DNA from: Candidatus Doudnabacteria bacterium
GTDB taxonomy: Bacteria > Patescibacteriota > Doudnabacteria > UBA920 > VMFF01
Assembly: GCA_963840645.1 (NCBI GenBank)
Contig: CAWIZL010000004.1
Location: forward strand, 267,470 to 331,469
DNA: 64,000 nucleotides
Direction of reading: 5' to 3'
Shown: piece after piece, positions 3,670-50,644 of the stretch
How positions within the stretch are numbered: the stretch's first letter is position 1
Layout: every line of letters starts with the position of its first letter
Translations under genes and position numbers: made by a program
Notes under the pieces: model-generated
The model's input: only the letters and a program-made list of their open reading frames with translations
Told to the model about the DNA's origin: nothing
Database searches by the model: none

Positions 3670-3767
3670 GGGGCAAGTAGTCAATAGTTAATAGATACTA
3701 GACCTGTAGAGATAATTTTTCTTTTGATTAGTAGAGATTGCACAATTTAGCTACTAACTATTAACTA
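3670..3767. repeat. Stop-rich inverted-repeat junction element, copy A (frr | BNR gene)
   Basis: Left arm 3676-3694 agtagtcaatagttaatag. Right arm ctactaactattaactag overlaps the upstream gene's stop at 3765. The core resembles copies B and C. Confidence 0.7.
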
Positions 3768-4900
3768 GTAACTATTTATCTGCGAGGCAACAGATAGGCC
3801 GACGTACGTGATCTGCGGCAGCGTGGGGTCAATTGCAATTGCGCCAACCTGGTTGACGCCAGCTGGCAGCACCTGGGTTTGCCACGTTGTGCCTGCGTTC
3901 GTGGTCTTGTACATTGTCCCGCCAATGCTCGTGTATGCTACCATGCCGCTGTCTGTGCTCGCAACCACCCGCGAGAACACGTTCCCAGAGTTGCTGGTTG
4001 GCAACGTGACGTACATCCACTGGCTGCCATTGCTGACAGTTTTGTACAGACCGCTCGCAGTGGCAAGGTACATGTCGCCAGCTTGGGTCTGGTCTAGGGC
4101 GAAGCTGTAGAACAGGCTCACTGGCTGTGCTGACAGGCTCGTTGAACTAAAGTTGAGCGAACTTGCGGTGAGCTGGTTGACCAGCGAGCTTCCACGTCTT
4201 GCCGCTGTTGGTGCTCACCAGCAAGCCTTTGCGCTGAAGCAAAAGGTAGAGGTTGCTGTTGAGGCTGCTCATGCGAATGCCGAGGGCAACATCGCCAGTG
4301 TTCTGGGCTACTGTTGCCCACGTTACTCCGCCATCGTTGCTGGTGATCACAGTGCCCTCAGCCAGGGATGCAAACATTTGCATTGGATTTGCTGGGTTTG
4401 CGGTTACCCCTGTGACCTGGCTGTCTGGGCTCGCATCGTTGTAGGTCTGCGTCCAGGTCGCGCCGCTGTCTGTGCTCACCACAATTTTGCCGTGGGCGCC
4501 GTAGTCTCCAGCAGCAACAATTGCCGCTGGGTTTGACGGGTTCAGGTACAGGTCTTGCACGCTGAAGTTTACGAGGATGTTCTTCCACGTTGCTGCGCTG
4601 TCAGTTGAAACCCACAGGCCACCTGGGCCACCAGCGTAAACGGTGGTGTTGCTCGAAGGTGAGATTTGGAGCGCATTGATTTCTGCGCCCGCAATGCTCG
4701 ACGTTGAGCTCCACCTCGTCTGCTGGCTGCCACGTTGCGCCACCGTCAACTGTCTTGGCAATGCCGAACGTGCCAGAGACGCCCAGGCCGAACGGCGCGA
4801 GCGCGCTGCACCCTGCTGCAATGAGCGGGAAGGCGGCCACCACACAAACTTTCTTCGCAATGCTTTTTATTTTCGGATTCATTTTAAATTTCTTAGACAA
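3765..4900 (-). CDS. BNR/Asp-box repeat (sialidase or Ycf48-like beta-propeller) lipoprotein (frame interrupted twice)
   Basis: Fragments 4601..4900 (signal peptide with LIAAGCS lipobox), 4147..4860 and 3765..4121 are colinear. Six SxDxGxTW-type Asp boxes are present (STDSAATW, STDSGATW, SNDGGVTW, STNSGKTW, TTNAGTTW, TVDGGATW). Confidence 0.7.
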
Positions 4901-17147: not shown

Positions 17148-17248
17148 GTTTATTGCTTGGTGGTTAATAGTTACACTTAGTATACAGTATAAGTATTAAG
17201 TAGATGAATTTCGTGCGCTACTGCATACTTATACTAACTACTGTCACA
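17148..17248. repeat. Stop-rich inverted-repeat junction element (arms only, different loop)
   Basis: agtataagtat...taagtag on the left pairs with ctact..atacttatact on the right. AT-rich, built of TAG/TAA units. Confidence 0.55.
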
Positions 17249-40534: not shown

Positions 40535-40647
40535 AGGTGCAGGTAGTTGGTAGTTAGTAGTTGATAGCTGGAGCCGATAGTTAGTATAGGGTAGCAGATG
40601 GTAACGCGCAAACGTGCGGATGCGATCTATTAACTACCAACTATTAA
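40535..40647. repeat. Stop-rich junction element, copy E (secY | rplO), core in the copy D orientation
   Basis: 40544-40556 tagttggtagtta pairs with 40631-40643 taactaccaacta (13/13). gtgcggatgcgatcta resembles the gcggatccgtcta core end. Confidence 0.75.
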
Positions 40648-45449: not shown

Positions 45450-45554
45450 GGGAGCAAGTAGTTAGTATAAATAGTTATTAGACGGATCCGCAAAATTTTT
45501 CATTCTATTGGTAGGCTGTCGTAGTTTAGCTACTGAATACTTATACTAACTACT
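45450..45554. repeat. Stop-rich junction element, copy C (rplP | rpsC)
   Basis: 45457-45473 agtagttagtataaata pairs with 45538-45554 tacttatactaactact (16/17, the mismatch being a G-U equivalent). The core is tagacggatccgcaaaatttttcattctattggtaggctgtcgtagtttagcta. The rpsC stop (45546) lies inside the right arm. Confidence 0.8.
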
Positions 45555-46211
45555 CGCCCTTGCTGGTGGGCGCTGCTCAAACTTCTCGCCTTTGTTGATC
45601 CAGACCTTCACGCCGATCGTGCCGTAGGTGGTGAACGCTGTTGCGCGGGCAAAATCTATGTTTGCGCGGAGCGTGTGGAGCGGGAGCTTGCCCTGCGCCA
45701 GCCACTCTGTGCGCGCAATGTCTGCGCCGCCCAAGCGTCCGCCAACAGCTATCTTCACGCCAATTGCACCCGCGTTCATGACCTGCTCAATGGACTGCTT
45801 GATCAGCCTCCGGAACGCAACGCGCTTCTCGAGCTGTTCACAGATCCCCTGCGCAATAACCAGAGCCTGGAGGTTAATGTCGCGAATCTCTTCAATGTTG
45901 ATCTTGAGGTCCTGCTTGATGCCCAGCTTCTTGGCAATCTTCTTCTTGAGGTCTTCAATGCCACCGCCGCCCTTGCCAATGATCATACCTGGCTTTGTTG
46001 ACTTGATCACCACGATGATTGCGCCGTCGTTGAGGCGCTCAATGTCAATGCGCACGATGCCTGCGCGCTTGAGCTGCTCCATGAGGTAGTCGCGGATCTG
46101 CACGTCCTCTTTGAGGGTCTGCGCGAACATGCGCGGTGAAGAGTACCACTTGGATTTCCAGGTGTCTGTGATCTTCAGTCTGAGGCTAGTTGGAGAAATT
46201 TTATGGCCCAT
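45546..46211 (-). CDS. rpsC: 30S ribosomal protein S3
   Basis: Intact 221-aa ORF with MGHKISPTSLRL and a KH domain. Confidence 0.93.
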   Translation of the reverse strand: MGHKISPTSLRLKITDTWKSKWYSSPRMFAQTLKEDVQIRDYLMEQLKRAGIVRIDIERLNDGAIIVVIKSTKPGMIIGKGGGGIEDLKKKIAKKLGIKQDLKINIEEIRDINLQALVIAQGICEQLEKRVAFRRLIKQSIEQVMNAGAIGVKIAVGGRLGGADIARTEWLAQGKLPLHTLRANIDFARATAFTTYGTIGVKVWINKGEKFEQRPPARASS

Positions 46212-49180: not shown

Positions 49181-49843
49181 CTATTTCTTCTTGTCTTTCT
49201 TCACAGCTTGCACTGGCTCGAGGTCTTTGATCTTGCCAGTTGAAACAACCTGGACAACACCGTTGCGGTGGCCAGGTACTGCGCCGCTGACTGCGATGAG
49301 CTTGCGCTCAAGGTCAATGTCAACGATCTGGAGATTTTTTACGGTGACGTTCACGCCGCCCATGCGGCCTGCCATGCGAAGACCTTTGCGAACGTGCTGT
49401 GGGTAGCGCTGCCCAATGGAACCTACTGCGCGAGGCTTGTCGTGGCCGTGGGATGCAGGCATACCTTTGAAGCCGTGTCGCTTCATTGCACCTGCAAAGC
49501 CACGACCCTTCATGACGCCGCTCACGTCTACGATTTCGCCAACCTGGAAGTTTGAAATATCAATTTGGCTGCCAACCTCAATGCCTGCCATGTCTTCACC
49601 TTCTGCGCGGAACTCTCTGATAACGGCAAAGGCCTGACCCTTTGTGTGGCCAGACACTGATTTGCTGATGTTCTTCTTCTTGCCAAAGCCAACCTGGACC
49701 GCTGCGTACTTGTCTTTGCCTGTGGTGGTCTTAACCTGCGTAACTGTGACAGGGCCTGCTTCGAGCACGGTAACAGGCACCACCGTGCCTGAAGGCAGGA
49801 AGTGCGATGTCATGTTCAGCTTTTTAGCGAGGGTAAACTTCAT
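49181..49843 (-). CDS. rplC: 50S ribosomal protein L3
   Basis: MKFTLAKKLNMTSHF...GKGFAGAMKRHGF. ATG at 49843 is chosen within ORF 49181..49891. Confidence 0.92.
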   Translation of the reverse strand: MKFTLAKKLNMTSHFLPSGTVVPVTVLEAGPVTVTQVKTTTGKDKYAAVQVGFGKKKNISKSVSGHTKGQAFAVIREFRAEGEDMAGIEVGSQIDISNFQVGEIVDVSGVMKGRGFAGAMKRHGFKGMPASHGHDKPRAVGSIGQRYPQHVRKGLRMAGRMGGVNVTVKNLQIVDIDLERKLIAVSGAVPGHRNGVVQVVSTGKIKDLEPVQAVKKDKKK

Positions 49844-49858
49844 AGTGTGTTTGATTCT

Positions 49859-49978
49859 TGGATTCGCAGGCTTGAGGCAAGTTCGAGGCAAAGTGTGAGG
49901 ATTTCTCGAGGCGTAGTCTACTACGGTGAGAGAAATCCGAACACTTTAACAAAGAAATTGACCAAGCCTGCGAATCCA
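49859..49978 (-). promoter_or_regulatory. 120-nt rod-like nested hairpin just upstream of rplC
   Basis: Four nested stems. Outer 16 bp: 49859-49874 tggattcgcaggcttg pairs with 49963-49978 caagcctgcgaatcca. Then aaagtgt/acacttt, then ggatttctc/gagaaatcc, then cgtag/ctacg. Confidence 0.55.
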
Positions 49979-49980
49979 AC

Positions 49981-50033
49981 CCAAATAAAAAACCGAGACG
50001 ATCCGCTTGCTTGCACAAATAAACCGTCTCGGT
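49981..50033 (-). terminator. Terminator-like hairpin plus U-run inside the rpsJ-rplC spacer (possible attenuator)
   Basis: 9-bp GC-rich stem: 49992-50000 accgagacg pairs with 50025-50033 cgtctcggt. On the minus strand it is followed by ttttttattt. Confidence 0.5.
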
Positions 50034-50196
50034 TCTTCAGTAAGCTGTATTGGATTCTGCTGAGCCAGCTAATTAAGCTGGAAATTGAATTTTTAACCTG
50101 CGTGCGGCTTGGTTTGGGTTCAGAGGTTGTCGCCCATTCTGCGAAGTTCTCTGTTTCCTTGCCTTGCCTACTAAATACTTACACTGACTACTTTCC

Positions 50197-50517
50197 CTAG
50201 TTCATCTTGATCTCCACGTCCACACCAGCTGGGAGATTGAGGTTCGTGAGAGAATCAATCGTTTTTGGAGTTGGATCGCTGATGTCAATGAGGCGCTTGT
50301 GCACCCGCATCTCAAACTGCTCTCGGCTGTCTTTGTGCACGAACGTTGAGCGAAGCACTGTGTACTTCGTCTTCTCCGTTGGCAGAGGGATTGGACCTGT
50401 GATCTGCGCGCCACTGCGCTTAGCTGTATCGACAATCTGCTTTGCAGACTGGTCAATGAGCTTGTGGTCGTACGCTTTGATCTTTATTCTGATTCTAGAC
50501 TTTGCCGCCTGGTCCAT
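50197..50517 (-). CDS. rpsJ: 30S ribosomal protein S10
   Basis: Intact 106-aa ORF with [17 protein letters not shown]. Confidence 0.93.
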
Positions 50518-50542: not shown

Positions 50543-50571
50543 ATTTTATACTAGTCTCACGGTTTTGTCAA
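50543..50571 (-). promoter_or_regulatory. Sigma70-type promoter of the S10 operon
   Basis: Minus strand: TTGACA (50571-50566), 17-nt spacer, TAAAAT (50548-50543). The 8-bp inverted repeat tctcacgg/ccgtgaga brackets the -35. Confidence 0.55.
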
Positions 50572-50612
50572 AGAGCTAGAAACGTCCGTGAGAACCCCTC
50601 AGACAAACCCGC

Positions 50613-50644
50613 GAGGCTCAATTCCAATTAAGGAATTGAGCCTC
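50613..50644 (-). terminator. 13-bp hairpin directly after tuf (terminator or stabiliser; weak U-tract)
   Basis: 50613-50625 gaggctcaattcc pairs with 50632-50644 ggaattgagcctc. It lies 10 nt below the tuf stop (50655). Confidence 0.45.

Follow-up and report, generated by a model that had tools for sequence, protein, structure and literature searches.

Autoregulatory ribosomal-protein leaders are lineage-specific. The leader of the E. coli S10 operon combines L4-mediated, NusA-dependent transcription attenuation with translational control, and S10 itself is also the transcription factor NusE. A different kind of element is represented by ERIC in enterobacteria and Correia/NEMIS in Neisseria, which are imperfect palindromes of 100-160 nt that resemble miniature inverted-repeat transposable elements (MITE) and lie in transcribed intergenic regions. 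The candidate phyla radiation is a large and mostly uncultured bacterial group with reduced genomes and unusual ribosomes. Our search of the literature found no autoregulatory ribosomal-protein leader described for Patescibacteria or the candidate phyla radiation. The E. coli-type S10 leader is reported to be limited to Gammaproteobacteria (PMC3616713), and the only leader described before rplC is the L4-Archaeoglobi candidate, located directly upstream of rplC-rplD-rplW-rplB (Eckert and Weinberg 2020, PMC7247131). Here we describe the spacer between rpsJ (S10) and rplC (L3) in a stretch of 64,000 nucleotides from Candidatus Doudnabacteria (contig CAWIZL010000004.1; hereafter the window, from whose first letter all coordinates are counted).

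The spacer spans 353 nt on the minus strand (50196..49844) and, on balance, we favour reading it as a composite of two parts. Part A would be a cis-acting leader/attenuator made of two hairpins (H1 and H2), a linker and a terminator-type hairpin (T) with its U-run. Part B, hereafter the rod, would be a truncated mobile-type palindromic repeat inserted after it. The minimum free energy (MFE) of the spacer is -128.8 kcal/mol compared to -87.2 +/- 5.5 for 100 shuffles (z = -7.6, with no shuffle as stable), in agreement with the structured spacer proposed by the original prediction, which was made from the window's letters alone. Judging from its sequence and comparative features, Part A is probably an attenuator that throttles the downstream ribosomal genes, and it appears to be a previously uncatalogued RNA leader, with nothing matching it in Rfam 15 or in the literature.

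Our comparison set consists of about 30 Doudnabacteria-like relatives, whose loci carry L numbers below; these relatives and the repeat copies are among the matches listed in the collection scans and all their counts are lower bounds. The rpsJ-rplC spacer is long (142-453 nt) in 19/19 Doudnabacteria-like loci from the genome scan. Eight distinct loci from protein look-ups have spacers of 210-358 nt, and in L087 the measured 156 nt become about 213 nt after start-codon correction. The remaining spacers of the same cluster are mostly 3-50 nt.

Part A begins with H1, whose asymmetric internal loop reads AACU on the 5' side (50148..50145) and CAAC on the 3' side (50129..50126) in the window, most relatives having AAGU / NAAC. 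H2 is the counterpart of the apical hairpin AGCnnAAnnnGCU of H1 in a sister group of relatives, and the covariance model (CM) of that sister group matches the window at 50067-50079. T has its core stem at 50033-50025 / 50000-49992, and the full hairpin (50037..49987) folds with -26.9 kcal/mol. The base of T, AAGAACCGAGACGG / CGUCUCGGUUUUUU, is invariant in sequence and is followed by invariant G.U pairs above, while the upper stem covaries. The original prediction described this GC-rich 9-bp hairpin and the U-run behind it just as we find them; H1 and H2, which lie 5' of the terminator and are conserved, had been overlooked. Coordinates are collected in Table 1.

Table 1. Positions of the features in and around the rpsJ-rplC spacer
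Feature	Position	Strand	Basis or remark
Part A (H1, linker, H2, T and U-run)	50168..49983	minus	
H1: outer P0, stem P1 (CAGAG/CUCUG), asymmetric internal loop, apical P2 (UCGC/GCGA)	50106..50168	minus	folds, alignment
A-rich single-stranded linker GGUUAAAAAUU, consensus GAAGAUUAAAAAUU	50088..50098	minus	conserved in alignments
H2 hairpin CCAGCUUAAUUAGCUGG	50065..50081	minus	consensus AGC-nnAAnnn-GCU
T: long terminator-type hairpin and U-run UUUUUUAUUU (49992..49983)	49983..50037	minus	
Part B, the rod: 122-nt imperfect palindrome with large internal loop and three inner stems	49858..49979	minus	
Stop-codon-rich segment AAGTAGTCAGTGTAAGTATTTAGTAGG, half-copy of GTAG-type hairpin arm	50167..50193	minus	not conserved in L081
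rpsJ (ribosomal protein S10), intact, 106 aa	50197..50517	minus	96% identity to Doudnabacteria S10
rplC (L3), first gene 3' of the spacer	49181..49843 (ATG 49843..49841)	minus	
Promoter-like site 5' of rpsJ, TTGACA-17-TAAAAT, 11/12 match	50543..50571	minus	consensus scan

Part A was found in every relative examined, as a single copy and at this site only, and a hairpin followed by a T-run occupies the site in every relative. Among the closest relatives, L086 (89 % L3 identity) has both Part A and the rod; L081 (90 % L3 identity) keeps the upstream 190 nt of the spacer and is missing the rod. We divided the sequences into group 1 (13 sequences including the window) and the sister group, group 2 (12 sequences). 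In the group-1 alignment of H1 and H2 (alignment A7), 91.3 % of the cells are paired and 14/19 pairs show compensatory changes, a degree of support equalled by 0/500 shuffles; within the H2 helix, 3/6 pairs are compensatory. T is conserved in 13/13 group-1 sequences (RNAalifold). For H1 of group 2, compensatory changes are seen at 13/21 pairs, again with 0/500 shuffles. Covariation across orthologous spacers, which the original prediction proposed to assess, is thus strong for Part A.

The CM built from group-1 H1-H2 (CM R3) gives one match per locus in 405 kb, each in this spacer only (window match 50059-50160, 78 bits), and Part A is therefore locus-specific rather than a repeat. Between group 1 and group 2, no homology of H1 was detected by CM search, the loop motif and a small AGC...GCU hairpin being what they have in common. 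The U-run is weakened in the closest relatives, reading UUUUCC in L081 and being interrupted in L086. The Rfam scan likewise proposed by the original prediction gave no match to the spacer: at the gathering score Rfam 15 has no match either in the window or in 35 loci related to it, and a search of the spacer, of L010 and of a full-length rod at E <= 10 gave nothing credible. The sole leader-type match, L20_leader on L010 (16.8 bits, E 0.8), is not credible and was discarded.

T has the features of an intrinsic terminator, a G+C-rich stem-loop followed directly by a U-tract. In insert-free relatives the distance from the T-run to the rplC ATG is 4-30 nt; it is 4-22 nt in L002-L004, L007, L011, L015, L016, L090 and L096 (for example 4 nt in L016, 6-7 nt in L002-L004, 10 nt in L096, 16 nt in L015 and 19 nt in L090). 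Because no promoter fits in 4-30 nt, rplC and the later essential genes must be transcribed through T. The comparative argument and a consensus scan agree in placing the terminator within a transcription unit that has no promoter before rplC. It is conceivable that T is instead a plain operon boundary, a constitutive terminator that ends the tuf/rpsJ transcript, with rplC served by a separate promoter (for the window, perhaps one in or next to the rod) and H1 and H2 stabilising the 3' untranslated region of the rpsJ mRNA. Paceibacteria-like relatives do have a terminator after rpsJ and then a promoter before rplC, and in T a strong hairpin is combined with a good U-run. The few nucleotides left between U-run and ATG in rod-less relatives nevertheless argue against such a boundary, as does the consensus scan of the minus strand of the window's spacer, which found no promoter-like site. 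A boundary would also leave unexplained the conserved loop of H1, the invariant G.U pairs of T and the antiterminator covariation of group 2 described below, and we consider it quite improbable.

In group 2, covarying complementarity exists between the 3' strand of the P1 stem of H1 and the terminator's 5' arm and loop, for example CTATTTAC/GGTAAATAG in L014, CTATTTGC/GGCAAATAG in L015 and a pairing of 12 nt in L012. Cognate duplexes have a mean of -11.4 kcal/mol compared to -6.7 kcal/mol for non-cognate ones, a value that 0/20,000 permutations reached, and these antiterminator duplexes are more stable than P1. The covarying alternative pairing therefore points to a classical, mutually exclusive terminator/antiterminator arrangement with H1 as the sensor helix. 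By analogy, we infer an attenuator mechanism in the window's group as well.

Control could also be exerted at the level of translation, a ribosomal protein on H1 and/or T blocking ribosome loading at rplC, with the U-run incidental or secondary. In E. coli, L4 as well as S8 exerts its control on translation, and T abuts the rplC start in insert-free relatives. The genes near the spacer are without recognisable Shine-Dalgarno sequences, a situation in which local structure may dominate initiation. However, in about half of the relatives, as in the window and L086, 70-175 nt of unrelated hairpin sequence separates T from the ATG, so that T would be uncoupled from the start codon there. The U-run is moreover retained in all but the closest relatives (L081 and L086), and the alternative pairing of group 2 targets the 5' arm of the terminator. 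Taken together, these points make a translational operator distinctly unlikely, and attenuation by Part A remains our preferred explanation.

The conserved internal loop of H1 is likely a binding site for a ribosomal protein encoded in the cluster. We scanned E. coli ribosomal RNA (rRNA) for the loop in the form helix, A, G/C, U, helix ... helix, N, A/U, A, C, helix. It is matched best by 16S 596-598/640-643, which is the S8 site in helix 21, and the sole other match in a real rRNA helix is the base of 23S helix H76. The bacterial small-subunit consensus at the 16S S8 site is AaGu / aaACu. The core of the S8 site contains the G597-C643 pair with a base triple, the invariant A642 and the A595-(A596-U644) triple (PMC4176348). 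In H1 of group 2, the G-C pair (12/12) is retained together with the bulged A, the U and the invariant A; most of group 1 has the G-C pair too, and the A642 equivalent and the U are invariant throughout both groups. As a rule, H1 does not preserve the U598-A640 pair and the A595-(A596-U644) triple, the exact form AAGU / AUACU being restricted to L014-L016, L020 and L029, a Paceibacterota locus. We tentatively regard S8, whose gene is part of the cluster in the window, as the best single ligand candidate, and the likeness of the loops makes this assignment possible rather than probable. L4, the regulator of the S10 leader in E. coli, would by precedent be the next candidate. A comparison with the L4 site in 23S domain I showed no meaningful similarity, and mimicry of that site was dropped.

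The segment of H2 and terminator in the sister group (L010 2765-2825, L013, L017, L021 and L011), ACAUAAGUA ... GCGGGU(G/A)AA(U)AAGCCCGCU, resembles E. coli 23S 1258-1295 (ACAUAAGUAACGAUAAAGCGGGUGAAAAGCCCGCU, helix 47 region), a resemblance that does not extend to the window's group. This segment could be a second rRNA mimic. The protein bL17 has been linked to the folding of 23S H47-49 (PMC9935924).

The second part of the spacer, the rod, has an outer stem of 17 bp that is 100 % complementary (49858-49874 / 49963-49979) and ends 14 nt from the rplC ATG; its inner stems are aaagtgt/acacttt, ggatttctc/gagaaatcc and cgtag/ctacg. All four stems had been recognised by the original prediction, which gave the outer one as 16 bp and the distance to the ATG as 15 nt. 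Compared to L081, the closest rod-less relative, the rod is a clean indel of 122 nt. Between the window and L086, four outer-stem and two inner-stem positions differ and all of these differences are compensated. A longer homologue is present at the same rpsJ-rplC site of L010 (59 % L3 identity). A pattern scan of metagenome contigs identified further copies between dnaG and rpoD in L088 and L089, two contigs that are Doudnabacteria by RpoD similarity. A CM from these five copies, with compensatory changes at 15/37 pairs, found a sixth, diverged copy in L088, located between minus-strand deoxyhypusine-synthase-like and PAD-like genes and antisense to both. The family thus has at least six copies, at rpsJ-rplC (window, L086, L010), at dnaG-rpoD (L088, L089) and at the second L088 site, the two copies of L088 lying within 4.6 kb.

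The dnaG-rpoD gap is rod-free and only 2-5 nt long in L098 and L099, and CM R1 found no rod in 93 kb of Doudnabacteria relatives (about 43 kb unique), a set that covers the place in L099 corresponding to the second L088 site. No second copy was found in the 64-kb window by a 17-mer search with 3 mismatches, blastn, nhmmer or CM; the terminal repeat of the family does not occur in the window beyond chance, and no rod was found in viral contigs. No Rfam family, 6S included, matches the rod. Full-length copies end TA-GGACTTACGCG ... CGCGTAAGTCC-TA, where the TA flanks three copies and could be the repeat's own, and the window's copy, which is without these ends and without the side branch of the family, is truncated. 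From this distribution we classify the rod as a dispersed, insertion-polymorphic imperfect palindrome of the MITE/ERIC-like type and not as part of the Part A leader.

The two explanations offered by the original prediction therefore divide between the two parts. An attenuator or autoregulatory leader fits the upstream half, where H1, H2 and the terminator are conserved, covarying and locus-specific, but does not include the rod. Conversely, an inserted MITE or small structured RNA fits the rod, a 122-nt indel relative to L081 and a member of a dispersed family, but not Part A. The prediction also held that identical copies elsewhere would reduce the element to a MITE; copies of the rod do exist in other genomes, although none was found elsewhere in the window and none was found for Part A.

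The rod may alternatively be a selected cis-acting RNA module, such as an RNase III site or a 5' stabiliser of the rplC-proximal mRNA, repeatedly recruited 5' of housekeeping genes. Compensatory changes retain all four stems, whether the window is compared with L086 or the six copies with one another, and the unpaired segments are conserved in sequence as well. On the gene-sense strand G.U pairs outnumber A.C mismatches by 8 to 2, which favours the sense strand of the rod, and 5/6 copies are in the sense orientation. Some long hairpin also stands at the same position in about half of the relatives. The rod is, however, missing from the 90 %-identical L081 and from the dnaG-rpoD site of L098 and L099, one copy is antisense to its neighbours, and the antisense strand has the lower MFE, folding better than the sense one. 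With 3-4 independent events, the bias in orientation does not reach significance. Maintenance of the stems could reflect RNA-level selection, DNA-level constraints or palindrome-templated repair, and we consider a selected module unlikely. A bolder combination, in which one S8-sensing attenuator (a helix-21 mimic) governs a super-operon of about 25 genes, S10/NusE stays constitutive and the rod is a functional module recruited upstream of rplC and rpoD, strikes us as rather unlikely too.

Either the rod or the whole spacer could in principle be a trans-acting small RNA, for example a divergent 6S-like rod with a central bubble. Full-length copies are indeed rods of 165-220 nt in which a large internal loop takes the centre and unpaired sequence is conserved, and the two diverged copies on the single contig of L088 would fit paralogous RNA genes. 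This idea is difficult to reconcile with the empty Rfam search, in which not even 6S appeared at E <= 10, with the truncation of the window's copy to 122 nt and its lack of a flanking promoter or terminator, and with the rod's absence both from the 93 kb of relatives mentioned above and from the orthologous sites. We regard a small RNA as very improbable, and continue with the composite of an attenuator and an inserted repeat.

Several observations weigh against this composite. The window, L086, L081 and L090 have C at the G597 equivalent (AACU/CAAC), and the resemblance to the S8 site is for that reason weakest in the window's own clade; the A640 equivalent varies between A, U, C and G in all groups. 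Folding of truncated alignments and inspection revealed no convincing antiterminator in the window's group (group 1), where nothing beyond a local AACC/GGUU mini-hairpin in the 5' arm of T was seen, and the switch is seen only in the sister group, whose CM misses the window's H1. A weak promoter-like site (9/12) lies within the end of rpsJ in L016, and a promoter in that position is possible. As for the rod, there is a single copy in 64 kb and its termini are unlike the inverted repeats of the family; no target-site duplication is visible at the window's copy, and no transposase is linked to it, none having been searched for. Finally, a perfect 17-bp stem with compensated changes could indicate selection for function.

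We propose the following scheme. Transcription would start at the rpsJ promoter and run through rpsJ, and the nascent RNA would fold H1 and H2 before the RNA polymerase meets T and its U-run. T would then either terminate the transcript or be read through, and only read-through transcripts would express rplC to secY. Part A would in this way set, and probably regulate, the output of a ribosomal cluster of about 25 genes relative to S10. A ribosomal protein encoded in the cluster may bind H1, and possibly T, and increase termination as negative feedback. In group 2, pairing of the 3' strand of H1 with its own 5' strand would allow the terminator to form, and pairing with the terminator's 5' arm and loop would instead produce the antiterminator; in the window's group, the protein may act directly on T. 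The rod would be a passive passenger of read-through transcripts, present there as a stable hairpin and at most tuning the processing or stability of the mRNA.

The position taken by the rod is occupied by other hairpins as well. In about half of the relatives (L006, L008, L009, L012, L013, L014, L017, L020, L021 and L035), the interval from the U-run to rplC holds long hairpins that are unrelated in sequence, several of them with ACGAAT-like repeat arms. The site therefore seems permissive or favoured for hairpins, which suggests either a hotspot or some benefit from a hairpin just 5' of rplC. The stop-rich arm next to the S10 stop, noted in the original prediction, does exist and is a half-copy of a second hairpin family in the window. 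Members of this family have stop-rich arms (AGTAGTTAGTATAAGTA... / ...TACTAACTACT), are GTAG/CTAC-tagged and are located at 45454-45557, 40544-40643, 3675-3777 and 17179-17242. They occupy intergenic spacers including two of the ribosomal cluster, rpsC-rplP and rplO-secY, where L081 has only 31 and 45 nt.

The arrangement of rpsJ and rplC differs in other lineages. A Zambryskibacteria/Paceibacteria-like set (L018, L019, L024, L028 and L032) has a terminator directly after rpsJ, then a TTGACA-17-TAATCT-like promoter and a short conserved leader, AAGCCAAACGGCGUUUUUUAU, before rplC. The original prediction took S10 and L3 genes to be normally adjacent. This describes most of the phyla compared, with gaps of 12-60 nt, but not several others: gaps of 120-460 nt are also found in Planctomycetota, Anaerolineales, Elusimicrobia and other Patescibacteria. 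Long-gap loci outside Doudnabacteria include L039, L040, L050, L052, L054, L061, L062 and L074, and those tested are without an Rfam match. Other uncatalogued leaders may therefore exist at rpsJ-rplC in those phyla.

In the window, tuf, rpsJ and the whole S10-spc cluster to secY lie on one strand, rplC being followed by rplD through secY with short gaps. L3 of the window shares 73-75 % identity with metagenome-assembled genomes of Candidatus Doudnabacteria and 89-90 % with metagenomic relatives; exact-protein look-ups for its S10 and L3 returned no record. The promoter-like site 5' of rpsJ, the only good one seen, is also found 5' of rpsJ in L081 and L016 (11/12); it presumably starts the transcript of rpsJ and the spacer, and would leave a 5' untranslated region of only about 26 nt. 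At the gathering score no tRNA, tmRNA, rRNA or any other Rfam family was found in the 64-kb window. A coding function for the spacer was considered on both strands and rejected. On the antisense strand, an open reading frame (ORF) of 132 aa (49802..50200) is disrupted in all frames in L086, and the rod indel of 122 nt is not a multiple of 3; on the sense strand, ORFs of 31 and 64 aa overlap the non-conserved rod.

Between 51879 and 39264 on the minus strand, essential genes are frameshifted relative to intact L081 orthologues: tuf is in about five pieces, and rplD, rplB, rplV, rplN, rplR and secY are each split in two. Such a pattern suggests gene decay or an assembly prone to indels (long-read), and single-base details of the spacer could therefore be assembly errors. 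The AACU loop of H1 is common to three independent relatives and is for that reason probably real. A perfect 13-bp hairpin, GAGGCUCAAUUCC UUAAU UGGAAUUGAGCCUC, with no U-run, lies between tuf and the rpsJ promoter-like site (50612-50642, minus strand). In L087, L090 and L091 the tuf-rpsJ interval holds an extra gene of the YbjQ_1 family; an ORF of 104 aa is present there in L090 and L091, and one of 148 aa in L093.

A leader that separates S10/NusE from the remaining cluster would be a concrete handle on the balance of ribosome synthesis. Part A offers a testable RNA-protein pair, and its sister group offers a clean terminator/antiterminator switch with three-way covariation. The rod, for its part, establishes a family of palindromic repeats in Patescibacteria. 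More generally, long structured spacers in such genomes can combine a regulatory core with an insertion.

Compared to the E. coli S10 leader, Part A belongs to the same gene cluster and likewise consists of several hairpins ending in a long attenuator hairpin and U-run shortly before the first regulated start; the feedback logic, with the protein encoded downstream, would also be the same, although here it is proposed. The E. coli leader lies 5' of rpsJ, whereas Part A lies 3' of the rpsJ stop, so that S10 would escape control, and the two have no sequence or Rfam similarity. The L4-Archaeoglobi candidate occupies the same gene position as Part A but is archaeal, differs in structure and gave no Rfam match here. 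The S8 site occurs in helix 21 of the 16S rRNA and, as a mimic, in the E. coli spc mRNA. H1 shares with it a helix broken by an asymmetric loop, with a bulged A, a U and a 3' bulge of 2 nt whose second base is an invariant A, and in most relatives also the G-C pair. The two differ in that the A640 equivalent of H1 is variable and its G597 equivalent is C in the window's clade. The S8 site of the spc mRNA is, like Part A, internal to a ribosomal operon, but acts on rplE translation where Part A has a terminator. The rod family is unrelated in sequence to ERIC and Correia, belongs to another host phylum (Patescibacteria) and is represented in the window by a copy without the family's terminal repeats. 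It nevertheless resembles those elements as a set of imperfect palindromes of 120-220 nt, present in short intra-operon spacers in both orientations and polymorphic for presence and absence, with terminal inverted repeats flanked by TA and substitutions that keep the pairing.

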